Below are positions 2,285-39,270 of a DNA stretch of 64,000 bases, in pieces (the first letter of the stretch is position 1; each line of letters starts with the position of its first letter). The notes under the pieces are model-generated. The model was not told the origin of the DNA and ran no database searches. It saw only the letters and a program-made list of their open reading frames with translations. The stretch spans positions 39,151-103,150 of the IMG/VR virus record IMGVR_UViG_3300021426_000003. One strand, given 5' to 3'. A program made the translations under genes and the position numbers. This stretch comes from a virus.

Positions 2285-2725
2285 TTACTTACCATGCTTA
2301 TGAGCAATAGCTTTAGGATATACCTTCTTTGATTCTGATTGAAGATTAGATTTAAAATTAGATACAGTATCATTTGCCATATCTTTTACAATATCTTTTT
2401 TTATTTCTTCATTTTTGATATTATCTTCAAACTTTACTTCGGTCTTATCTTCGGAATCAATTTCTTCCATAATTTCTTTATAGGCTTTACCATAACTTCC
2501 TTTATACTTCATATGTCTGGAAGTATCTTTGGTATCAATAATTTTTTTTGCGTCTTCTTTAGAAATTTTATTATAAATATAATCAGTTAATAAAGAAGTA
2601 ATGTCTTTACAATCTTCACTACAATAACTAAACATCCATACAGGCTTATCTTGAAAAGCGCTGCATGAATTACAGTACTCATATACTTTGCCACATAAAA
2701 TGCAGCTCCTATCATATCTTGCCAT
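2285..2725 (-). CDS. Cys-rich zinc-finger-like protein
   Basis: CILCGKVYEYCNSCSAF...CSEDC cysteine cluster near the N-terminus; K/E-rich C-terminus. Confidence 0.45.
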   Translation of the reverse strand: MARYDRSCILCGKVYEYCNSCSAFQDKPVWMFSYCSEDCKDITSLLTDYIYNKISKEDAKKIIDTKDTSRHMKYKGSYGKAYKEIMEEIDSEDKTEVKFEDNIKNEEIKKDIVKDMANDTVSNFKSNLQSESKKVYPKAIAHKHGK

Positions 2726-2785
2726 ATCTGTTTATCTCCTTTTTGAATGTTTATTTATTTATTATATATTATATACATATTAGGA

Positions 2786-3985
2786 TTATTTTATAATACC
2801 TAATTCTTTTCCTTTTCTAATATAACGTCTAACGGTATTAGTGCAAACATCTATCTTTTGAGCTATTTTAGAATAATCTATACAACCATTATTAAATAAT
2901 TCACATGCAGTTTTTAGTCTGTTACACTGAGCGTATTTATCTGCCTTTTCAATATCTATCTCTTTTAAAATAGTAGATAAATTAGATTCTTTTATTGAAT
3001 TAACTATATACCAATTTTCAGACAAACTACAATCTAATTCTATGTATTTATCTATTCCATTGCTTAAAGCCAATTGACGTTTTGTTTTATCAATTTTTCT
3101 TTGCAAATCAACTTTATACCAACCATCTTCATAATGTTGTCTACCATGTGTCTCTATAATCCAATTGTAATCTGGTAGATAAAAATCATATTTATATTTA
3201 CCACACCAATCATAATCACTTTTAGATAATTGGTATTTAAAACTGATTTTGTTTTGTTTTAAAATATAAACTAAAAACTTTTCAGGATAACTAAATCCAT
3301 CTGAACAATAAGGACATCCAAAACTCTGAAAATATAAATTATAAAAGGACATCTTCTTTTCATATCCACAAGTTGGACATTTCATTAAAGTGGATTTATT
3401 AGTCGTTTTTGTATGATTATATCCAAATTCTTTATCAACTAGATATACCATTAAATCAGGAGCAGTAGTACTAATATCATTAACACCTTTAATAACTTTT
3501 GTTCCTGCACAACAACTACAGCCTTTTTTATCTTTTAAATCTGTTTCGTTAATCCAAAAATCATCCATAGTACAATCATAACCACATACGTTACATTTAT
3601 ACTGATACCATTTATAATTACGTTCGTATCCTTTTTTAAAATCAGGATTATCTTTAGAATAATATTTAGCAGTGATTGTTATATCTGTTTTATACCCTTT
3701 TTTATCATATTGAATATTTTCTCCAATATGATATTTCCAATCTACTTCTTCATCAAATATTTTAGCAATTTTTCCTTTACGAATATATTTACCATAAACC
3801 ATTGTGGTTTTATTATTATATTTTATATACACTTTATCTCTACTTTCGTAATTTATGATTTCAAAAAAATCTTTTAACCCATCATATTCAAATGGAATTT
3901 TTAATCCAATTGCTTTACTCCAGTCATATATAATTCGTGTATCATTTTTCTTTGTTGGGATTTGTGATAAATCACATTTTCTCAT
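2786..3985 (-). CDS. putative homing endonuclease: two zinc ribbons, a Vsr/DUF559-like PD-(D/E)xK nuclease core and a C-terminal HTH
   Basis: CNVCGYDC..CSCC and CPTCGY..CPYC ribbons; DFYLPDYNWIIETHGRQH matches the DF-LP...IE-DG-H pattern of Vsr/DUF559-like endonucleases; C-terminal TNTVRRYIRKGKELGII is HTH-like; strong AAGGAGG RBS. Confidence 0.55.
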   Translation of the reverse strand: MRKCDLSQIPTKKNDTRIIYDWSKAIGLKIPFEYDGLKDFFEIINYESRDKVYIKYNNKTTMVYGKYIRKGKIAKIFDEEVDWKYHIGENIQYDKKGYKTDITITAKYYSKDNPDFKKGYERNYKWYQYKCNVCGYDCTMDDFWINETDLKDKKGCSCCAGTKVIKGVNDISTTAPDLMVYLVDKEFGYNHTKTTNKSTLMKCPTCGYEKKMSFYNLYFQSFGCPYCSDGFSYPEKFLVYILKQNKISFKYQLSKSDYDWCGKYKYDFYLPDYNWIIETHGRQHYEDGWYKVDLQRKIDKTKRQLALSNGIDKYIELDCSLSENWYIVNSIKESNLSTILKEIDIEKADKYAQCNRLKTACELFNNGCIDYSKIAQKIDVCTNTVRRYIRKGKELGIIK

Positions 3986-4014
3986 TTAATTATTCCTCCT
4001 TAAAATAATTTCTC

Positions 4015-4052
4015 CTAATTAATAAAAGAAGAGGGGTAGGAGTTCCCCTCTT
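4015..4052 (-). terminator. intrinsic terminator (minus strand)
   Basis: Perfect 8-bp stem AAGAGGGG/CCCCTCTT with an 8-nt loop, followed on the minus strand by CUUUUAUUAAUU. Confidence 0.55.
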
Positions 4053-4094
4053 ATCAATACAGTTCATGACGCTGTATCTATCTTTTAAGAAATA

Positions 4095-4122
4095 ATATGG
4101 TGCGTTTTGAGGCGCACCATAT
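4095..4122 (-). terminator. stem-loop, possible second terminator
   Basis: 10-bp stem ATATGGTGCG/CGCACCATAT with an 8-nt loop, followed on the minus strand by UAUUUCUU. Confidence 0.4.
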
Positions 4123-4639
4123 CTAATATTTAACATATATAATATATACATATTAATTATATATATTATTCATATAATGTCAAGAGATTAATCTTCCTCT
4201 GCATCTTCTGTAGCATAGTAAACCTGATACAGAGTCTTATCAACGGAACAGTACAATTATACCCTCGGTTTCCCGATATTTCTTAGGGGTTTAGAGCACA
4301 TCATCATCTTGTATTAATAAACAAGAGCAAGGCACTTCAGATAAAAGAATTTCACTTTTATCCTACAGACTTCATCATCTCATTAAGATGGTATGTCCTG
4401 CTCGTTTGACCTTCAAGAATATTACTATTCAAGCTTGGCACTGGATTGCCATTTTAAAGGTTTCCCAGTTAGCATAATTTCTAATCGTCATTTCCTACGA
4501 TTCCTAAACGTAAATTACACACCATATATTTATATGTTCACCTTGTTTAACGTGGACAACTTGTCCCGAATTTTATCCACCTGTAAATCACCTGTAAAAT
4601 CAATAGAGGTGTCATCACCACCCAGCGCAATAGTAGTCT

Positions 4640-5000
4640 CAGGACTAGGCTGGAAGGAAGGAAGCACAATATAAACCATTCTGTTACTTTCCCTGTGCAA
4701 AGGGTACTGACCATTTCTGGCGAGTAGGAGTTTCCACCTACTTCTCACGTTTCTTATTTAGATTATTGCGTGAGGTCGGACTATATATCATCCCTACTAA
4801 ATTAGGGCAACAGCTTCAATAATATAATTACTTATATCATCCTGTAGTCTCTGCGGATTCTTGATGTAATATCAAGTCTTTCCTCAGGATTACCCATCTC
4901 TGAGCTTCCCCTGATATAGCTGTTATTGACGTTCGTTTTTTAACGATACTGAACGTACATAGATTACTCTATGATAGCCATTTATGATTTCGTAATAACG
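4640..5000 (-). ncRNA. group I intron-like ribozyme core (boundaries approximate)
   Basis: On the minus strand: GCAGAGACUACAGG (R/P7-5'-like, rc of 4841-4854) and GAUAUAUAGUCCGACC (S/P7-3'-like, rc of 4775-4790) about 60 nt apart. UCAGGGGAAGCUCAGAGAUGG (rc of 4904-4924) is very similar to the Tetrahymena P5b segment UCAGGGGAAACUUUGAGAUGG. Several hairpins lie between; GC is elevated and there is no ORF. Confidence 0.5.
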
Positions 5001-5647
5001 TTTATAAATAAACGAAATCCCGAAGCTCTAAGCGTATCGGCTTCGCATGGATCAACACACAGACCCTTCATTGTAAGTTTAACAGTCTTAGGGAACTTAT
5101 CAGCGGAGTTCAGAATATAAACACCTTCGTTCACATTTCTATCAAACTTAACAACATACTGTTCCTCATTTGTATCTGTAGGAGCAGTAAGCTTTGTGCC
5201 AGCAAGACCAAATGCTGTAGCAGAAGCTGTAGCATCCTGAGTATAAGCCTTACCCATAGCACCATTAGTAGCAAGAGCATTAACAGTCAGTCTAGCACCA
5301 GCTGTATAACCAGTACCAAGGTCAACTGTTTCACCTCTCTTAACAGTGATAATCTTAGGCATCAGAATAGGAGCTTCAGTAGTAGCAAGTTTAGCATCAT
5401 TACCAGACTGAGCAGCCAGAACGTTAAGGTTCAGCATTGCGTTAGTAGCGGTAAATGTACCAGTCTTAGCTCTCCAGAATCTCTTAATCAGAGTACCATC
5501 TTTATCAGTTGTATCTTTGGACTCAGCAGAAATTTCGATAGAAGCATCGGAAAGCTGAGTAAGAACATACAGAGGTGTTCCATCGAACTTTTCAGCCATA
5601 GCCATTTGGATTCTATCAATAATCAAATCACCTAATTTAAAAGCCAT
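4982..5647 (-). CDS. putative major tail protein (abundant structural protein); the 3' end is possibly intron-derived
   Basis: 221-aa ORF with GC-richer, highly-expressed-style codon usage and strong RBS; lies upstream of chaperone-sized genes and the tape-measure-like start. The last ~12 codons switch to AU-rich sequence and run into the ribozyme-like region. Confidence 0.5.
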   Translation of the reverse strand: MAFKLGDLIIDRIQMAMAEKFDGTPLYVLTQLSDASIEISAESKDTTDKDGTLIKRFWRAKTGTFTATNAMLNLNVLAAQSGNDAKLATTEAPILMPKIITVKRGETVDLGTGYTAGARLTVNALATNGAMGKAYTQDATASATAFGLAGTKLTAPTDTNEEQYVVKFDRNVNEGVYILNSADKFPKTVKLTMKGLCVDPCEADTLRASGFRLFINVITKS

Positions 5648-5668
5648 GATAGTATTCTCCTTTCAAAT

Positions 5669-6481
5669 TTATTTTTTATTTGCGGGTTTTATATCTCTCA
5701 TGAAATCAAACTCTTCTTTATCAATTCCTTTTGTATCAATAAAACCACTATACATTCCTTTAAGTAGAGCAGTGGTAGATTCATAAACCTGAAGACGTTG
5801 TACACTTCTCATAAATTCATAAATACCAACTTCTCTTAATTCATTTTTTTTATATTTAAAACCAGCATGACAACAACAAGATTCAATCAATGGTAAAAAG
5901 GTAGAAGTAGTATCTTCTTTTTTAGCATTAGCTAAATTCATTCTATCTTCTTCAATAATCCATTTCTTAGTTGTTTTCCCTTTGGCTTTTTCAACTTTAG
6001 GAAAGATATTAAACATCGTTCTTATATATAGAGCAATGTTCTTATATATATCTTCATTTATTTCAATGTCTAATTCAGAATTCCAAAGAACCATTTCCTG
6101 TTTAGGTTCTGATTCTTCTTTATTATCAGATTCATCCTCATTTGGAATTTGTTTCATGTAAGCATCAAATGAAGATAAATCTAAATCCCCAAATAATATT
6201 TCTGTATTTTCAACTTTTAAAGTTTTAATTAATAATGAAAATAATTGAAAATCGGATATCTCATTCCAATCAATTCCCATGTCCCACAGTAATAATCTAT
6301 AAGATGTTGTATTTCCAATAAATACATTGAGCATTGACCAGAATTCAGATTCTCCAAATTTTTTATCATATTCTAATATTCCACCAATAGTAGGTTGGTA
6401 TACAAGAATTTTATCTGAGACTTGATATGGGTCACCAAAATATAACTGTAATAAACTAATATCAGAATTTGAAGGTGTCAT
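5669..6481 (-). CDS. hypothetical structural protein
   Basis: ORF 5669-6514; the internal ATG at 6479-6481 has a GGGGAG RBS and removes most of the overlap with the upstream gene. Confidence 0.45.
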   Translation of the reverse strand: MTPSNSDISLLQLYFGDPYQVSDKILVYQPTIGGILEYDKKFGESEFWSMLNVFIGNTTSYRLLLWDMGIDWNEISDFQLFSLLIKTLKVENTEILFGDLDLSSFDAYMKQIPNEDESDNKEESEPKQEMVLWNSELDIEINEDIYKNIALYIRTMFNIFPKVEKAKGKTTKKWIIEEDRMNLANAKKEDTTSTFLPLIESCCCHAGFKYKKNELREVGIYEFMRSVQRLQVYESTTALLKGMYSGFIDTKGIDKEEFDFMRDIKPANKK

Positions 6482-7076
6482 ATTTATTATTTCTCCCCAT
6501 ATGTTTATTAACAAGATTAGGAGTTTTAATTAAAAAACGCATTCTTCTACTATAATAATCAGCATCCAGTATATAAGGTCTATCTTCTTCAAGAACCACT
6601 TGGAATCCTAAAGCATTAGTCCAACATAACAAATCTCTGACTATATAGCCCAATAAATCAGTTCTTACAATTCCATATTCTGTTTCCATATCATCCTCAT
6701 GAACAACACACATAACTTCAATGTATTGTTTTTTAATAGTGTCATTATAATAATCAACACCATCATCTCTGATATCAAACATAACAAAATTTAAAACTTC
6801 TTTTTGCAAACCATTAAGTTTTAAAAAAGGAACAATTTGTTCATGTTTAATTTTTTCATTATATTCAATTATTTCCTGTCTTTTTTTTAATTCTTCTTCA
6901 GTTGGATTATCTACATCTGAATATTCATTCAATGGCTTAGGTTCTAAAACACCAAGCACATCTTTTAAATCTGGGTCTTCATTAAACATTTTTAATAGTT
7001 TATCTTTTTTATATATTATGTCATTGTTATTTCTATCATCTAAGTCCCTAGAAATTCCTTTTATATCCCTTTTCAT
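6462..7076 (-). CDS. hypothetical structural protein
   Basis: 204-aa ORF, start coupled to the stop of the upstream gene. Confidence 0.45.
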   Translation of the reverse strand: MKRDIKGISRDLDDRNNNDIIYKKDKLLKMFNEDPDLKDVLGVLEPKPLNEYSDVDNPTEEELKKRQEIIEYNEKIKHEQIVPFLKLNGLQKEVLNFVMFDIRDDGVDYYNDTIKKQYIEVMCVVHEDDMETEYGIVRTDLLGYIVRDLLCWTNALGFQVVLEEDRPYILDADYYSRRMRFLIKTPNLVNKHMGRNNKYDTFKF

Positions 7077-8290
7077 TTTTGAACCTCCAACTCAATAGAA
7101 GATACATAATCACCATTCGAGTCTTGAACGGATAAAATAAACTTTTCACCCACTAACTTATTAGTTTTAGCAGGTTTAATAGAAATAGTAGATTTATCTA
7201 TTTGACGCATTACAATTAAATCACATAAGTGTTTAATTTCTTCTTCTGATAATTCAGAAGTGCCATTATAATCAATACGCCATTCTGCATTTAAATCTTG
7301 AAGTTTACCTTTTAAGAAAAACTCAACATTAAAATAAGAAGTTTTTGCTATATGTAATATCTTGTCCTGCGCACGATTTCGTTGTAATACACCATCCTCA
7401 TCAATAATAGCAGACCACAAATAACTTCTTGCGGTATCATCTACATGAGATTCTTGTTTAGTAACAACTTCACCAGAACCGTTATAATAATTACAAAGCA
7501 TCAAATCTACATTATCTCTAGTTTCATCTAATTCATCCTGCTTTAAAGTTAATTTAATAACCCCTTGAGGTATTAAATCTTGAACTTTTGTAACAGAATA
7601 AACTTTTGGGTCAAGCATATTATGTGTAAGCATGAATCTATGCTCATGTTGAAGATAACGAGTATCACAAAGATTATAATCAGACAACTTATCTCCATAT
7701 AAAAGATAAGTATCTGGTAACCATGCGTTTGTAATATTATCCAAAGCCGTTGAATAATCCGCAGTCCAAACACCACTCGTATAACTATTAGCATTTCTAA
7801 TTGCTGACCATACATTTAATATTTTATTCTCACCATTCACTCTTGCTACCCATCTTAAATTCCAATTGCATTTAATAATATTATATCTAACAAACTCATT
7901 AGCATCATTTCTGCCAACTATCATCCATAATTTATTAACATCAAAATTTTCATCTTTAAAAGGGTCAGATGGTTCATAATCTTCAAAACCAATTTCATAA
8001 TCTTCATCATTAGGAATAAACACATATGTTCCAACAGGATAATGAATACGAGGTCTGAATTGAAGATAATAATCAACCGCATCTTTTAAAATTGATGGAG
8101 TAGCATGTTTAGAATATTTTGCATCTTCATAAATCCATCCTTCTTCTTTATCTAATATATATACTCGTTTATATCCTATATCCCCTGTAAAAGTAGCATT
8201 CATCACCATAGCAGAATTATACTGTCTAACCTGTGATAAATTCCTACCTTTGTTATTTAACATAGTTTGATACATATCAGAAGTAATCAA
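7073..8290 (-). CDS. hypothetical structural protein (405 aa)
   Basis: Long ORF in the head-tail joining/tail region with coupled start and stop. Confidence 0.5.
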   Translation of the reverse strand: MITSDMYQTMLNNKGRNLSQVRQYNSAMVMNATFTGDIGYKRVYILDKEEGWIYEDAKYSKHATPSILKDAVDYYLQFRPRIHYPVGTYVFIPNDEDYEIGFEDYEPSDPFKDENFDVNKLWMIVGRNDANEFVRYNIIKCNWNLRWVARVNGENKILNVWSAIRNANSYTSGVWTADYSTALDNITNAWLPDTYLLYGDKLSDYNLCDTRYLQHEHRFMLTHNMLDPKVYSVTKVQDLIPQGVIKLTLKQDELDETRDNVDLMLCNYYNGSGEVVTKQESHVDDTARSYLWSAIIDEDGVLQRNRAQDKILHIAKTSYFNVEFFLKGKLQDLNAEWRIDYNGTSELSEEEIKHLCDLIVMRQIDKSTISIKPAKTNKLVGEKFILSVQDSNGDYVSSIELEVQK

Positions 8291-8622
8291 TTAGATACCT
8301 CTTGTATTTTATCTACTAGCGAGTGGGCATCTAGGATACATTTTCTATAATTATGATAATTAAAAGGATTCTGCTTTGTTTCTCTATATGCTGTCTGCAA
8401 TAAACAAGTAATCTCTACAATCTGTGGAGGATAGAAGAGTAGTTCATTTAAACTGTCTATCTCTTGCATTAAAGAAACAAAATATTTATTAAAATCTACA
8501 TTAGGATATTCATTTATTTTTTTAGGGTCTTTATATAGAATTAACCAATGAATTTTACTATGTAGTTGTTTTTTAAATTGTTCAAACTGCTCATCACTAA
8601 AGTGACCATATAAATATTTCAT
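8287..8622 (-). CDS. hypothetical head-tail protein
   Basis: ORF 8287-8661; the ATG at 8620-8622 has a GAGGTGAG RBS and avoids overlap with the upstream gene. Confidence 0.45.
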   Translation of the reverse strand: MKYLYGHFSDEQFEQFKKQLHSKIHWLILYKDPKKINEYPNVDFNKYFVSLMQEIDSLNELLFYPPQIVEITCLLQTAYRETKQNPFNYHNYRKCILDAHSLVDKIQEVSN

Positions 8623-8623
8623 A

Positions 8624-9169
8624 TTACTCACCTCGCAGTCTTGAACTTTTAGATGTACCATTAATATATGAATTATTAGAATAACCTCTATCTCTAATTA
8701 AACTCCTTTGATGATTAATTAAATCATCACGAAGATTTCTTAATTCAGATAAATGAGTTTGTTGTGCATAAAATTTTTCATCCGAAGTACCAAAAAATTG
8801 AGCAATATTAGTCAAACTATATATCTTCGGTTCAAGCCAACAAAGTGCCATACCATAAGCAAGGACTTCAATGACAAATTGTTTATCACCAAAGTCCTCA
8901 TCTATTACATTATTTAATTCATATTCTATCATACCGTCTACATCTATTAATTCCCCTGTATCAGGGTCTTCATCTTGATAAGGGTCTGATAAAGTGACAG
9001 TCGAAAACAATCTATTAACATAAGGTTTCCCAATAGAAGAGTGCAGCCAACTACACAAAAGAGCCTCTCTATATTCATCACTTATATTCTTATCAAAGAT
9101 GTCATATCCTTCAATCTTTAAAAAGAATTGAGAATAAACTTCTTTATAGTTAATGGTCTGAAGAGGCAT
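8624..9169 (-). CDS. hypothetical head-tail connector-region protein
   Basis: 181-aa ORF downstream of the capsid gene. Confidence 0.45.
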   Translation of the reverse strand: MPLQTINYKEVYSQFFLKIEGYDIFDKNISDEYREALLCSWLHSSIGKPYVNRLFSTVTLSDPYQDEDPDTGELIDVDGMIEYELNNVIDEDFGDKQFVIEVLAYGMALCWLEPKIYSLTNIAQFFGTSDEKFYAQQTHLSELRNLRDDLINHQRSLIRDRGYSNNSYINGTSKSSRLRGE

Positions 9170-15014: not shown

Positions 15015-16775
15015 CTATAATGTTCTCATATTTAAACGTCCTTTTTTTATAGTTAATCTTTCTACTAAAGATTGAGTATCTTCATAATGGGGACGTAGTT
15101 GTAATTCTAATTGTGAAGCACACCAGTAATTATAAGCGATAGAAGAGTATCTATCCTTCCTACAACCTGATGGTTCAAATACGGTTATTTTATTGTTTTT
15201 AATATAATATTTTAATTTAACCAATTCATATACACCTAGCGTACATTGAGCATATGGCATTTTCATTCTGGCTTGTTCCATTGGGGTCATCTTTTTAAAT
15301 GATTTATATTCTTCAGCAATTACTTCATCTGCATTTTGTTCTGGAATTAAAAAATTAATTCTACCATTGTTAATGGCATTTCTTAACAATACACAAATTG
15401 TATTATTAAAATCAGCTGTTGCTTTTACTGACCACACCACCCTCAAGGCGTTAGGAACTTTACATCTAGCAGCCATTTCATCATTATTACAACAGCTTAA
15501 TGCTCCATATACTTCTCCTGTCTCTGGGTCATACTGGTCTTTAGCTATAAAATCTGCTATACCTAAACCTACTCCATTGGTATCAACTACTAAGTCGGTA
15601 CATTTGTACTTATAAAAATATCTCATTATTATTATTCCTAATTCATCAGTAGTTAATCCTTCAAAATTCTCTCCATAAACAAAATTAGATTGGTAAGTTG
15701 TAGTAGTAGTTCTTATAGCATCATTTATATAAATAGATGAAGCATCATTTTTCTTTTTGTTTGTTGATGCCATAAGTGCAATATCTACAGACATAATTCT
15801 TTTACCACCAGCAGGAGGATTGGGTATTGAAAATTTCTCATTATAATAATCTAAAGGATAAAGACAATGTTTAACTCTTCTTATTTTATTTAAAGAATCA
15901 AATTTAAATAATCCACCTTCAGTATCTCCATACCATAAACATTCATCTTCCATCGAAAAAGCAATTTCATTAAAATCTGCTTCAGACATTTGGTCTTCAA
16001 CTTGTCCTCTATCCAACAAATGCTCTCTAATAGATAATTGATATGGAAGTCCGCATATAAAGTATTTTTGTTTATCACTAAAAAAATTTGCAGTATAAGT
16101 TTGAGCTTTGGTATACGCCCATGAACTTTTAAAATATGCAGATGATAAATACAATTCTTTGTTTCGTTCTATTAAATGAGCATATTCTGGTTTATCCAAA
16201 TATTTAGGATGTCTAGGAGCTTTTAAAAATTCTCTTATAACACTATCAAGTATTTTTTTATCTACCATTCTAAACTCATCTACAACAATTATATTAGCTC
16301 TGGCAGAACGAGAGTTTTCAGTACTAGTTCTTGTTTTAATCCAAGACCCCCCTTTAAATCTAATAGTTGCATCATTTTGCCCTATTTTCATTTCTTCAAT
16401 ACAAGATTGAAGAATAGGAGAGTGTGGATATATTTCATCTTGAATTTTTAAAAGCACTTCATTTGCTTGTTTTAATGTTGCTGATGTTACTACAATTTTA
16501 CTATTAGGATATAAAATACATCTACACACACAAAACACCGCAGTTAACCAAGTTTTTCCAGCACCACGGGCAGCAATATACATAAAATAATTATAGTGCA
16601 TCATTGCCCAGATAAGAATTGCTTGAAACCATTTTAAATTTATATTTAATATATCTTTACAAAACCTTTGAGGATTAGCACGATAATAACCAGCTCTCCA
16701 AGCTATAGTCTCCATTATTTTCTGAGACTTTTCTTGCTCAAGTTCTTTTATATTTTTTTTATTTTCAACTACCAT
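15015..16775 (-). CDS. terL: terminase large subunit
   Basis: Walker A YIAARGAGKTWLTAVF and Walker B IIVVDEF in the N-terminal ATPase; 586 aa; followed by the portal gene. Confidence 0.8.
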   Translation of the reverse strand: MVVENKKNIKELEQEKSQKIMETIAWRAGYYRANPQRFCKDILNINLKWFQAILIWAMMHYNYFMYIAARGAGKTWLTAVFCVCRCILYPNSKIVVTSATLKQANEVLLKIQDEIYPHSPILQSCIEEMKIGQNDATIRFKGGSWIKTRTSTENSRSARANIIVVDEFRMVDKKILDSVIREFLKAPRHPKYLDKPEYAHLIERNKELYLSSAYFKSSWAYTKAQTYTANFFSDKQKYFICGLPYQLSIREHLLDRGQVEDQMSEADFNEIAFSMEDECLWYGDTEGGLFKFDSLNKIRRVKHCLYPLDYYNEKFSIPNPPAGGKRIMSVDIALMASTNKKKNDASSIYINDAIRTTTTTYQSNFVYGENFEGLTTDELGIIIMRYFYKYKCTDLVVDTNGVGLGIADFIAKDQYDPETGEVYGALSCCNNDEMAARCKVPNALRVVWSVKATADFNNTICVLLRNAINNGRINFLIPEQNADEVIAEEYKSFKKMTPMEQARMKMPYAQCTLGVYELVKLKYYIKNNKITVFEPSGCRKDRYSSIAYNYWCASQLELQLRPHYEDTQSLVERLTIKKGRLNMRTL

Positions 16776-17829
16776 TTAATTCACGGTCAGCTTCTTCTCC
16801 GAATATTTTATTAAACAGAGTTTCACTGTCAGCTCCTTCATCATATTGAGGTTTTGTAACAGTATATTTAGACATAAATTTTTCATATATTGTAGAAAAA
16901 GCATTTTTAATTCCCATCATTACAGCCATGTGACCTTTAAAGAAAACATCAACTAACATTCCAATATGGTCAATATCTTTAAATTCCCCTTCAGGTTCTG
17001 GAACGGGTTTTTCTTCTTCCCATTTTTCAATCAATTGGTCAAATGATAATTGACTGGTCAAACTATCTCCACTACTTTGATTAGGTTTAATACCCAAAGA
17101 GCCTAATAAATCTTGTAAAGATTTATCTAAATCTTTTGTGTCTCTATTAGCTTTAGTTGCTCTATCAATTTCTAATTGTTTAAAACAAACACGTTTAAAT
17201 AATTCTTCTTGAGCTTTATTATCACAAGGATATCTAGTTACCCAATCTTCATATTCTTTTTCAAGAAAATATAATTCTTCAGATGGATATTTACCAAACC
17301 GCTTACGACCAGTTTTTATTAATTCTTTAATTTCTTCATCATCTTCATCCGTTGATTCTGTATGAGTTCCAAAATCAGAATTAGCAAAAGTTTTATCTGT
17401 ATATTGTGGGAGAGAAGATAAAGCAACAATCATCTTTTGCCACGCTGTTTCTATTGTTCGTTCTCCTACATCTGCTTTAACAGCTTGTAACATTTTATTA
17501 TATAAAGCATCATCAAACGGTTTATCCATCATCCTTAAAACATTAATAGTCTTTTCACGATTGTCTTTATACGTTCCATCTTTTTTATTGTAATCAGTAG
17601 CAGCTTTCATAGTACATTTTTTACACATATGAAAATAACCACTAGCATTTGTTTTACTTTGATAAAAATTACTTTTAGACTGAAACGTATTACAACAATG
17701 ACAATAATAATAATCAAATTCAATTAAATGATTATAATCAGTAGCAAGTGTATTATATGCTTCTTTTACTTGCTTTACTGTCATTTTCTTTATTTCGTCT
17801 TCAGTCTTTGCTTGTTTCATAAAAGCCAT
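16765..17829 (-). CDS. putative terminase small subunit or packaging-associated protein
   Basis: 354-aa ORF overlapping the terL start by 11 nt; Cys cluster CHCCNTF...CKKC; assignment is positional. Confidence 0.4.
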   Translation of the reverse strand: MAFMKQAKTEDEIKKMTVKQVKEAYNTLATDYNHLIEFDYYYCHCCNTFQSKSNFYQSKTNASGYFHMCKKCTMKAATDYNKKDGTYKDNREKTINVLRMMDKPFDDALYNKMLQAVKADVGERTIETAWQKMIVALSSLPQYTDKTFANSDFGTHTESTDEDDEEIKELIKTGRKRFGKYPSEELYFLEKEYEDWVTRYPCDNKAQEELFKRVCFKQLEIDRATKANRDTKDLDKSLQDLLGSLGIKPNQSSGDSLTSQLSFDQLIEKWEEEKPVPEPEGEFKDIDHIGMLVDVFFKGHMAVMMGIKNAFSTIYEKFMSKYTVTKPQYDEGADSETLFNKIFGEEADRELNGS

Positions 17830-17866: not shown

Positions 17867-17939
17867 AGCTCCCAGACGGACTTGAACCATCAACCTATTG
17901 ATTACAAATCAATTGCGCTACCAATTGCGCCATAAGAGC
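17867..17939 (-). tRNA. tRNA-Thr (anticodon UGU)
   Basis: The reverse complement folds as a cloverleaf: acceptor GCTCTTA/TGGGAGC, D arm GCGC-AATTGGTA-GCGC, anticodon arm ATTGA-TTTGTAA-TCAAT, T arm GATGG-TTCAAGT-CCGTC. Confidence 0.7.
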
Positions 17940-19980: not shown

Positions 19981-20056
19981 CGATTTAGGAGGGATTTGAA
20001 CCCTCGCTCCCCAGCGTGACAGGCTGGTGCTTTAAACCGAACTAAGCTACTAAACC
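19981..20056 (-). tRNA. tRNA-Asp (anticodon GUC)
   Basis: The reverse complement GGTTTAGTAGCTTAGTTCGGTTTAAAGCACCAGCCTGTCACGCTGGGGAGCGAGGGTTCAAATCCCTCCTAAATCG folds as a cloverleaf with anticodon loop CTGTCAC and discriminator G. Confidence 0.7.
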
Positions 20057-38697: not shown

Positions 38698-39270
38698 ATG
38701 GCAAACAAGAACACAGGCAACACACAGGTACAGGCAATCGCAATCGCACAGGCAATGGCAATCACGCAAGCTATGCTTGCGTTGGATGCGTATCGGACAT
38801 CGCTCCTCGCGTATGCAGATGCGGACGCACATGAGGATCGTGAGCGCATGAGCATGTACGCATCACTCGGCAAGGGCGAGCGCAAGGCAGTGTGGAACGC
38901 ACTTGTGAAAGCGGGCTTTCCCGTAGGGAAAGCTGTGCTTCCCAAGACCGAAGCAGCAGCGCCTGCGCCCAAGCAGTCACAGACTCCTACGGAACGTGCT
39001 GGTGAGGTGTGCATGTGGGTACGTGATGGCGCATACGTGAGCACTGCCACCGCAGGTGGCAAGTTCGTTGGTCGCAGTGGAATCCGCAAGATTCTCAACG
39101 CTCGCATCCGTAAGGCGGGTGGCACATACGACAAGGCGCACAAGGCGTACAAGTTCCCGAACGAGCAGAACGCCATTGACTTCGTCAATGCTACATCCGC
39201 TACGGTCACGGACGAGCAGTTCCGTGAGTACATGGGCACACTGGAGCGCAAGCACAATGAGAAGGCGTAA
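38698..39270 (+). CDS. hypothetical protein encoded by a GC-rich foreign cassette (190 aa, Ala/Lys-rich)
   Basis: AGAGGAGAAAAATCATG RBS; about 60% GC versus about 30% in the flanks; followed by a strong terminator; upstream TTGACT with a TCCAAAAAT/ATTTTTGGA palindrome. Confidence 0.55.
   Translation: MANKNTGNTQVQAIAIAQAMAITQAMLALDAYRTSLLAYADADAHEDRERMSMYASLGKGERKAVWNALVKAGFPVGKAVLPKTEAAAPAPKQSQTPTERAGEVCMWVRDGAYVSTATAGGKFVGRSGIRKILNARIRKAGGTYDKAHKAYKFPNEQNAIDFVNATSATVTDEQFREYMGTLERKHNEKA

Follow-up and report, generated by a model that had tools for sequence, protein, structure and literature searches.

The tail-tube gene in a 64,000-nt window of a virus genome (IMG/VR virus record IMGVR_UViG_3300021426_000003, positions 39,151 to 103,150) is very probably split near its 3' end by two different group I introns, neither of which contains an open reading frame (ORF). 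The gene lies on the minus strand; its three exons, the introns and their helices are listed in Table 1. A first-pass annotation made from the letters alone had placed a group I intron right after the apparent end of a 221-aa tail gene. An Rfam alignment, covariation and an intron-less allele all agree with this placement. The annotation missed intron 2, exon 3 and a free-standing endonuclease gene further downstream. Its proposed extent (4530-5010) takes in intron 1 and exon 2 but only the first 45 nt of intron 2, thus the real feature is larger.

The strongest evidence is an uninterrupted allele. Among 37 related loci compared, the gene in IMG/VR locus L005 is without insertions and its protein is 98% identical to the spliced product. 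It reads ...TLRA/VYIV...LQVD/YCSV...EED followed by the stop, where the slashes mark the predicted exon junctions, i.e. it corresponds to the predicted spliced product of 263 aa. Both exon 2 (102/102 nt) and exon 3 (66/66 nt) are identical to L005, together 168/168 nt. The boundaries between exons and introns are exact, because a shift of either boundary by one base loses the L005 sequence and no alternative boundary reproduces it. When joined, the exons comprise 792 nt, corresponding to 263 codons and a stop, and the removal of each intron restores the frame exactly.

The homologous proteins show the same arrangement. A protein collection was searched with the 221-aa protein fused to the conserved part of the downstream ORF, and many uninterrupted homologues of ~260 aa span all three exons. 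They read ...CEADTLRA-VYIVLPSFQPSPETTIALGGDDTSIDFTGDLQ(V/T)D-YCSVDKTLYQ(V/I)YYATED.E. Comparison of the spliced ORF with intron-less homologues, a check that the first-pass annotation had proposed, comes out in its favour: L005 and the ~260-aa proteins read straight through. The residues that are invariant in the family include, within the C-terminal 55 aa, S215, F216, Q217, P220, E221, Y243 and C244. About 40 of the best 120 protein clusters are 208-221 aa long and end just past EADTLRA, as expected of gene calls on intron-bearing alleles. The 221-aa ORF of the window (5647..4982) is such a case. Its last 13 codons (SGFRLFINVITKS and the stop) lie beyond the point where the homologues diverge, and they are read-through into the intron as had been suggested. 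The next ORF, 4748..4530, had been put forward as a possible exon 2. It does contain the conserved coding segment VYIVLPSFQPSPETTIALGGDDTSIDFTGDLQVD, but only 4676..4575 (34 codons) is exonic; intron 1 supplies the first 24 codons with its 3' end, and the 5' end of intron 2 supplies the last 14 codons and the stop.

By its predicted fold, the product of the interrupted gene is a tail-tube (major tail) protein of siphovirus type. The structure predicted for the spliced protein has the beta-sandwich fold of tail-tube and Hcp proteins, which supports the earlier identification as a major tail gene, and exon 1 matches phrog_2729, 'virion structural protein'. Pfam gave no family for the tail protein, in a version without PF27173, which the database relatives carry. 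A sequence search of PDB with the spliced protein gave nothing useful. No match was obtained when the spliced protein was searched with tblastn against 50,697 GenBank phage records, while ~800 relatives are present in metagenomes, on contigs up to ~220 kb. The phage is thus a member of a lineage not yet cultured. The relatives of the introns, found in Thomasclavelia, Enterocloster, Bacillus and Lactobacillus phages, point to Firmicutes hosts.

Both introns have the organisation of group I ribozymes. The core helices P3-P4-P5-P6-P7-P8 follow each other in the canonical order, P3 and P7 make up the pseudoknot, and P9 is present. In both cases the last base of the upstream exon is a U opposite a guide G, and the last base of the intron is a G. 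Subgroup IA is marked by extra helices between P7 and P3'; intron 1 has one of these and intron 2 has two, and all of them covary.

In intron 1 the internal guide sequence (IGS) pairs with the end of exon 1, AGCU (P1, with a U.G pair at the splice site), and also with the start of exon 2, GUUUAU (P10). Both pairings covary with the exons: the window and L012 have AGCU/GGCU as P1, vs CGCU/GGCG in L004, L007 and L010, and P10 is GUUUAU/AUAAAU vs GUUUAC/GUAAAU among the homologues at the same site. Eight same-site homologues were folded with RNAalifold, which recovers P2, P2.1, P3, P4, P5, P6, P6a, the hairpin between P7 and P3', P8, P9 and three P9 extensions. With the P7 pseudoknot included, 99.5% of 624 cells (78 pairs in the eight homologues) are paired, and 15 pairs show compensatory changes, compared with 0-2 in slid controls and a mean of 6.9 in shuffles. 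The single-sequence fold has a z of -3.97.

On a 381-nt stretch, the Rfam Intron_gpI model aligns to intron 1 over its full length (positions 1-253; 30.3 bits, E 4.7e-6), with assignments for P3 to P9. The core of intron 1 is also 76% identical to an intron in the tape-measure gene of Thomasclavelia phage TR-TP1, in which P7 is GACUG/CAGUC, vs GACUA/UAGUC here, and P9 is CUCACA/UGUGAG, vs CUCACG/CGUGAG here. The three strings on which the first-pass annotation based its proposal are found on the minus strand where it placed them: GCAGAGACUACAGG at 4854..4841, GAUAUAUAGUCCGACC at 4789..4774 and UCAGGGGAAGCUCAGAGAUGG at 4914..4894. However, UCAGGGGAAGCUCAGAGAUGG is not the P5b-like segment it was taken for, as the covariance-model alignment makes it P4/J4-5/P5, the classical 'P' element. 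Two other pairings considered for intron 1, CGAAGC/GCUUCG as P1 and CUCAG/CUGAG as P5, were dropped since the covarying guide and the covariance-model alignment fit better.

Intron 2 is related to introns of known split genes. Overlapping pieces of it resemble sequences in 259 GenBank phage records (blastn), and all relatives that were inspected sit between the halves of split genes. They comprise DNA polymerase genes (Aerococcus phage AVP, Bacillus phage BSP10, Lactobacillus phage Semele), yonO of phi3T, and genes from the Enterocloster phages CB457P1, CB457P2 and CB473P3. Over its final 43-51 nt, through the terminal G, intron 2 shares 90-98% identity with the 3' ends of Herelleviridae DNA-polymerase introns. 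Analogues of its P1 are found as CCAGAU/GUCUGG in CB457P1 and UUGGAU/GUCCAA in CB457P2. When IMG/VR was scanned for exact matches to a pattern of the P4-P5 region, L042 and one more match were returned; the latter, L041, is GC-rich coding sequence and was dismissed as spurious.

Intron 2 was aligned with four relatives, from three of which ORFs or long loops were removed by hand. In this alignment 94.4% of 270 cells (54 pairs) are paired, and 24/54 pairs are changed on both sides, compared with 1-9 in slid controls and a mean of 10.3 in shuffles. Three of the five P7 pairs are among them, and P7 is paired in all four versions: GAGCA/UGCUC (window), GACUA/UAGUC, GACCA/UGGUC and GGUCA/UGACC. In intron 2 and in its relatives among known phage introns (L043, L045, L046 and L047), P3 has a continuous 3' strand, but its 5' strand is interrupted by ~65 nt containing P2 and P2.1. 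The outer half of P3 covaries fully (CAAGG/CCUUG, GAUGG/CCAUC, GUCAG/CUGAC, AUCGG/CCGAU).

Table 1. Coordinates of the interrupted tail-tube gene, its introns and the downstream cassette in the 64,000-nt window.
Feature	Position	Strand	Details
Exon 1	5024..5647	minus	Codons 1-208, ends ...CEADTLRA, final base U 5024; from homologue alignment
Intron 1	4677..5023	minus	347 nt, without ORF, IA-like group I
Intron 1 P1, 5' strand	5027..5024	minus	AGCU, inside exon 1
Intron 1 IGS	4985..4976	minus	AUAAAU-GGCU
Intron 1 in-frame stop	4984..4982	minus	UAA
Intron 1 P2	4973..4958	minus	
Intron 1 P2.1	4956..4929	minus	
Intron 1 P3	4925..4919 with 4814..4808	minus	
Intron 1 P4	4914..4909 with 4889..4884	minus	
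Intron 1 P5	4905..4892	minus	
Intron 1 P6/P6a	4883..4855	minus	
Intron 1 P7	4849..4845 with 4783..4779	minus	GACUA with UAGUC; strands 62 nt apart
Intron 1 hairpin between P7 and P3' (P7.1/7.2 position)	4841..4818	minus	10 bp
Intron 1 P8	4807..4792	minus	
Intron 1 P9	4774..4744	minus	
Intron 1 P9.1	4742..4723	minus	
Intron 1 P9.1a	4721..4710	minus	
Intron 1 P9.2	4704..4691	minus	
Intron 1 terminal G	4677	minus	
Exon 2	4575..4676	minus	34 codons, VYIVLPSFQPSPETTIALGGDDTSIDFTGDLQVD; 102 nt, a multiple of 3; from protein alignment
Intron 2	4254..4574	minus	321 nt, group I, without ORF; precisely absent from L005
Intron 2 P1	4580..4575 with 4557..4552	minus	GUGGAU (in exon 2) with IGS GUCCAC; 6 bp
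Intron 2 P3, two parts	4545..4541 and 4474..4471 with 4336..4328	minus	CAAGG and UGCU with AGUGCCUUG
Intron 2 P2	4536..4523	minus	
Intron 2 in-frame stop	4532..4530	minus	
Intron 2 P2.1	4502..4483	minus	
Intron 2 P4	4468..4464 with 4445..4441	minus	
Intron 2 P6/P6a	4439..4409	minus	
Intron 2 P7	4403..4399 with 4298..4294	minus	GAGCA with UGCUC
Intron 2 P7.1	4390..4376	minus	
Intron 2 P7.2	4362..4340	minus	
Intron 2 P8	4325..4308	minus	
Intron 2 P9/P9a	4289..4262	minus	
Intron 2 terminal G	4254	minus	
Exon 3	4188..4253	minus	YCSVDKTLYQVYYATEDAEED and stop 4190..4188; C-terminus conserved in full-length homologues
Perfect sigma-70 promoter consensus	4183..4156	minus	TTGACA-16-TATAAT; 5 nt past the tail-tube stop codon
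Terminator-like hairpin of the tail-tube gene	4123..4094	minus	Also in relatives without the endonuclease gene (alignment to L042/L005)
Inserted cassette	2761..4083	minus	~1.3 kb; begins ~100 nt past the stop codon
Second terminator-like hairpin	4052..4029	minus	In the cassette
Homing-endonuclease-like ORF	3985..2786	minus	399 aa, free-standing, with ribosome-binding site

Several observations weigh against the assignment to two group I introns, the most obvious being the Rfam scores. Neither intron reaches the gathering score of the Rfam model (RF00028, Intron_gpI; 50 bits). Intron 1 scores 30.3 bits, and intron 2, on a short stretch, is matched over P4-P6 only with 18.3 bits (E 0.017). A scan of the 64-kb window at the gathering score returned no intron, only two tRNAs, and a scan of 2600-5800 (3.2 kb) at E<=10 returned no intron match either, because the speed filters removed it. 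The covariance-model check proposed in the first-pass annotation thus fails at the gathering score and in scans of at least 3 kb, but succeeds for intron 1 on the short stretch. The absence of a covariance-model hit, which was to have counted as a refutation, is too strict a condition, as intron 1 is real nonetheless. The Rfam model is reported to under-represent phage introns (PMC11878797).

The remaining difficulties concern the structures. In intron 1, P1 has only 4 bp, and P3, P4, P6, P7 and P9 are invariant among the same-site homologues, so the support for these core helices comes from the Rfam alignment and from TR-TP1. For intron 2, the structure is based on only five sequences, three of them edited by hand, and the sole relative at the same site (L042) is 99.4% identical and thus uninformative on covariation. 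Its inner P3 is weak, UGCU/AGUG with two G.U pairs, where the relatives have GUGCU/AGCGC. The confidence of the tail-tube model is moderate (pLDDT, the predicted local distance difference test, is 69.5).

The low Rfam scores, the short P1 of intron 1 and the weakened inner P3 of intron 2 could also be read as signs of decay. The insertions would then be relics that no longer splice, and the phage would make the truncated 221-aa protein only, or the gene would be a pseudogene. We nevertheless consider this explanation improbable, since neither exon 2 nor exon 3 is damaged or out of frame, both have the nucleotide sequence of the intron-less allele, and the 55 C-terminal residues that would be lost are rich in positions invariant in the family. 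The introns themselves do not look decayed, as all core helices and both splice-site rules are retained. The compensatory substitutions in the peripheral helices imply selection on the RNA fold, and the same intron (intron 1) persists in at least nine independent metagenomic loci. Further, a tail-tube gene is expected to be essential.

Even less probable, to the point that we hardly consider it, is that the insertions are elements of another kind: group II introns, inteins, translational bypass segments as in T4 gene 60, miniature inverted-repeat transposable elements or insertion sequences, or an assembly chimera. Nothing specific speaks for any of these beyond the bare fact of an interruption. 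Stop codons in all frames exclude an intein. The inserts of 321-347 nt have no reverse transcriptase, domain V/VI or Rfam group II match, they far exceed the known lengths of bypass gaps, and terminal inverted repeats are not needed to explain them, while group I helices, guides and terminal G are all present. The same structures are found in independent assemblies from several samples.

If both introns splice, as we infer from the boundaries and structures, the primary transcript would be ordered exon 1, intron 1, exon 2, intron 2 and exon 3. Each intron would fold into a group I ribozyme with its internal guide paired to the end of the upstream exon (P1). An exogenous guanosine held in P7 would attack the 5' splice site, and the released exon would attack the bond that follows the terminal G of the intron. 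Splicing would ligate 5024 to 4676 and 4575 to 4253, yielding an mRNA for the 263-aa tail-tube protein; without it only the 221-aa protein, which lacks the conserved C-terminal 55 residues, could be made. The in-frame stop 13-14 codons into each intron may keep ribosomes off the ribozyme core. Such early in-frame stops are common in phage introns and are thought to exclude ribosomes from the core (PMC3984707, section 11). If the 5' site of intron 1 were joined to the 3' site of intron 2, in the manner of Twort orf142, exon 2 would be skipped in frame because its 102 nt are a multiple of three; such skipping, if true, could yield a second isoform of the tube protein. The guide of intron 1 has no obvious P10 complementarity to exon 3.

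No further copies of the introns were found when six intron sequences were compared with the window by blastn and motif scans were made. Weak 30-nt AT-rich matches at ~37.6-37.8 kb are within an ORF and were attributed to chance. In the four largest intergenic gaps (33.0-33.9, 36.3-36.9, 39.45-40.72 and 41.33-42.62 kb) no intron was found with Rfam.

Downstream of the tail-tube gene, the window has a cassette that L042 and L005 lack although they are otherwise collinear, i.e. it is a clean intergenic insertion. Its 399-aa ORF contains zinc-finger repeats, a nuclease domain like those of Vsr and I-Bth0305I, in which D267, E278, G281, Q283 and H284 are invariant, and a C-terminal helix-turn-helix (HTH). 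The product is predicted to have the Vsr/I-Bth0305I fold and to be a Vsr/EDxHD-like homing endonuclease. Pfam gives weak zinc-finger and HTH matches only, and sequence searches of PDB with the endonuclease and with its profile gave nothing useful. The protein shares 25% identity (E 6e-10) with gp30 of TR-TP1, whose gene lies within the very intron with a core like that of intron 1.

The spread of the introns is most likely driven, or formerly was, by this endonuclease, whose cassette is located ~100 nt away; the argument is one of co-occurrence. In L012, L013, L014 and L016 the corresponding intergenic position holds a homologue with 55% identity. These four loci all have intron 1, while none of the ~27 intron-less loci carries such a homologue, counts that are not phylogenetically independent. 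The restriction of the endonuclease to loci with intron 1 is expected if the intron shields its carrier from self-cleavage. Against a role in mobility, intron 1 is found without any endonuclease gene in L007, L009 and L010, and intron 2 is found without one in L042.

The endonuclease could act in two ways. One would be cleavage of intron-less alleles in or close to the intron-1 site, as in collaborative homing; the other would be cleavage of the empty intergenic site, with the introns dragged along by co-conversion. The co-occurrence facts fit both equally well. There is a real chance, if short of an even one, that the enzyme has nothing to do with the intron sites, that it homes intergenically like the Seg and Mob enzymes of T4, and that the introns hitch-hike by co-conversion or are inherited vertically. 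The clean intergenic insertion, the introns that occur without an endonuclease gene and a different HNH gene at the same intergenic spot in L004 all fit such hitch-hiking. So does the pattern of substitutions in exon 1. It differs from L005 at 32/624 nt, and 12 synonymous differences from both L005 and L004 (whose exon 1 is identical to the intron-less L005 exon 1) fall within the last 41 nt before intron 1 (5064..5024), while exons 2 and 3 differ at 0/168. This cluster looks like a co-conversion tract, although selection on an endonuclease target or on P1 could have the same outcome. Hitch-hiking is less easily reconciled with the confinement of the endonuclease to intron-1 loci and with the intron-encoded enzyme of TR-TP1.

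The relatives contain further insertions in the same part of the gene. In the close relative L004 (7073..7485 of this locus; IMG/VR contig 3300026549_000041), intron 1 is accompanied by another group I-like intron that differs from intron 2. It contains the strings CAACGACUAUCC and GAAGAUAUAGUCUAUUC and is inserted four codons upstream of the intron-2 site of the window. With its best P1, GGAGU/GCUCC, splicing would add four residues (VIFK) compared with intron-less proteins. In L033, a homologue with 56% identity, a different insertion of ~325 nt (6635..6958) lies 7 nt upstream of the intron-1 site; the exon ends ...ACGGU and the insert ends ...AAAUCG. Thus there are at least four distinct intron insertion sites within ~110 nt (those of L033, intron 1, the second L004 intron and intron 2). 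At the intergenic position of the cassette, L004 has a different free-standing endonuclease gene (7698..8981). Its 427-aa product combines two DUF4379 zinc fingers with a true HNH domain (PF01844, above threshold). L004 and L042 are the two ends of one 143-kb contig, IMGVR_UViG_3300026549_000041, which appears to have the tail-tube region in two allelic forms. One end has the L004-type second intron and the HNH gene, and the other resembles the window in its intron 2 but is free of endonuclease genes. The two forms suggest that the contig is a terminally redundant assembly from a mixed population.

It can be speculated that the 3' 170 nt of the gene are a contested landing zone for selfish elements. 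Under this tentative and rather doubtful scenario, the Vsr-like enzyme would cut intron-less alleles at the intron-1 site, ~0.7-1 kb from its own gene, and intron 1 would be the element that confers immunity. At least two unrelated free-standing endonuclease genes (Vsr/EDxHD-like and HNH) alternate at the same downstream intergenic spot. If true, the scenario would bring a new enzyme family and a virion gene into collaborative homing, and a second, unrelated intron would travel along.

It has long been known that protein genes of phages can contain group I introns, and the tail-tube gene of the window is a further example of this type of interruption. The closest precedent is orf142 of phage Twort, in which three group I introns interrupt what proved to be a tail-tube gene (PMC11878797, Discussion). 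In both cases several introns without ORFs interrupt one tail-tube gene in a phage of Gram-positive bacteria, the exons between them are short and the introns are of IA type with extra helices between P7 and P3'. However, the tube protein of the myovirus Twort has 142 aa, whereas the protein here has 263 aa, is siphovirus-type and has no detectable sequence relation to it. Further, the window gene has two introns instead of three. The introns were compared in sequence only through blastn of the window intron against GenBank phage records. Splicing and exon skipping have been demonstrated for Twort, whereas for the window splicing is predicted.

Intron 2 shares P2, the split P3, P4, P6, P7, P7.2, P8 and P9 with introns of Herelleviridae and SPbeta-like phages (SPO1, Bastille, BSP10, AVP and Semele DNA polymerase, phi3T yonO; PMC11878797; PMC3984707). 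Those introns lie in genes of DNA metabolism and mostly have an HNH gene in a loop, whereas intron 2 is without an ORF and interrupts a virion gene. In the Bastillevirinae, introns colonise only genes for nucleotide and DNA metabolism and terminases (PMC11878797).

Collaborative homing is described for the free-standing F-CphI beside an ORF-less psbA intron in cyanophage S-PM2, and for mobE with the nrdB intron of T4 (PMC3984707 section 12; PMC6083498; PMC2790892). As in these pairs, the endonuclease here is found only together with an intron. The enzyme families differ, since the window enzyme is Vsr/EDxHD-like, F-CphI is EndoVII-like and MobE is an HNH enzyme. A further difference is that the present case comprises two introns and no fewer than two alternative endonuclease genes. 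The defining point of collaborative homing is that the cleavage target equals the intron site, and what we observe is co-occurrence. The gene of the EDxHD homing endonuclease I-Bth0305I (PDB 3r3p) lies within a group I intron in phage 0305phi8-36 of Bacillus thuringiensis. The 399-aa endonuclease is 18% identical to it, with no match at the sequence level, and, unlike it, is free-standing and has N-terminal zinc-finger repeats and a C-terminal HTH.

Some other features of the window should be mentioned. The promoter consensus after the tail-tube gene precedes the terminator hairpin of the gene itself, which is an odd order of signals, and relatives without the homing-endonuclease gene have a different sequence at its position. 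Directly upstream of the gene for the large terminase subunit, a 354-aa ORF (17829..16765, minus strand) has weak matches to endonuclease VII (phrog_1035, E 1e-4) and may be another free-standing homing endonuclease. The structural and packaging gene block also contains two tRNA genes, at 20056..19981 (68.2 bits) and 17939..17867 (67.0 bits), on the minus strand.

The interest of these introns is that they interrupt a virion gene of an uncultured lineage and that both escape the Rfam threshold. Gene callers truncate the tail-tube protein, about one-third of its closest database relatives being annotated as 208-221 aa, therefore annotation based on homology or structure is systematically wrong at this gene throughout the lineage. 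Standard Rfam screening overlooks real phage group I introns that fall below the gathering score or are filtered out in long scans, while comparison with an intron-less allele detects them with certainty. After Twort orf142, this is the second example of several group I introns in a tail-tube gene. The natural alleles, which have every combination of the two ORF-less introns and the Vsr-like endonuclease, provide a compact system in which to test how introns and endonucleases cooperate.

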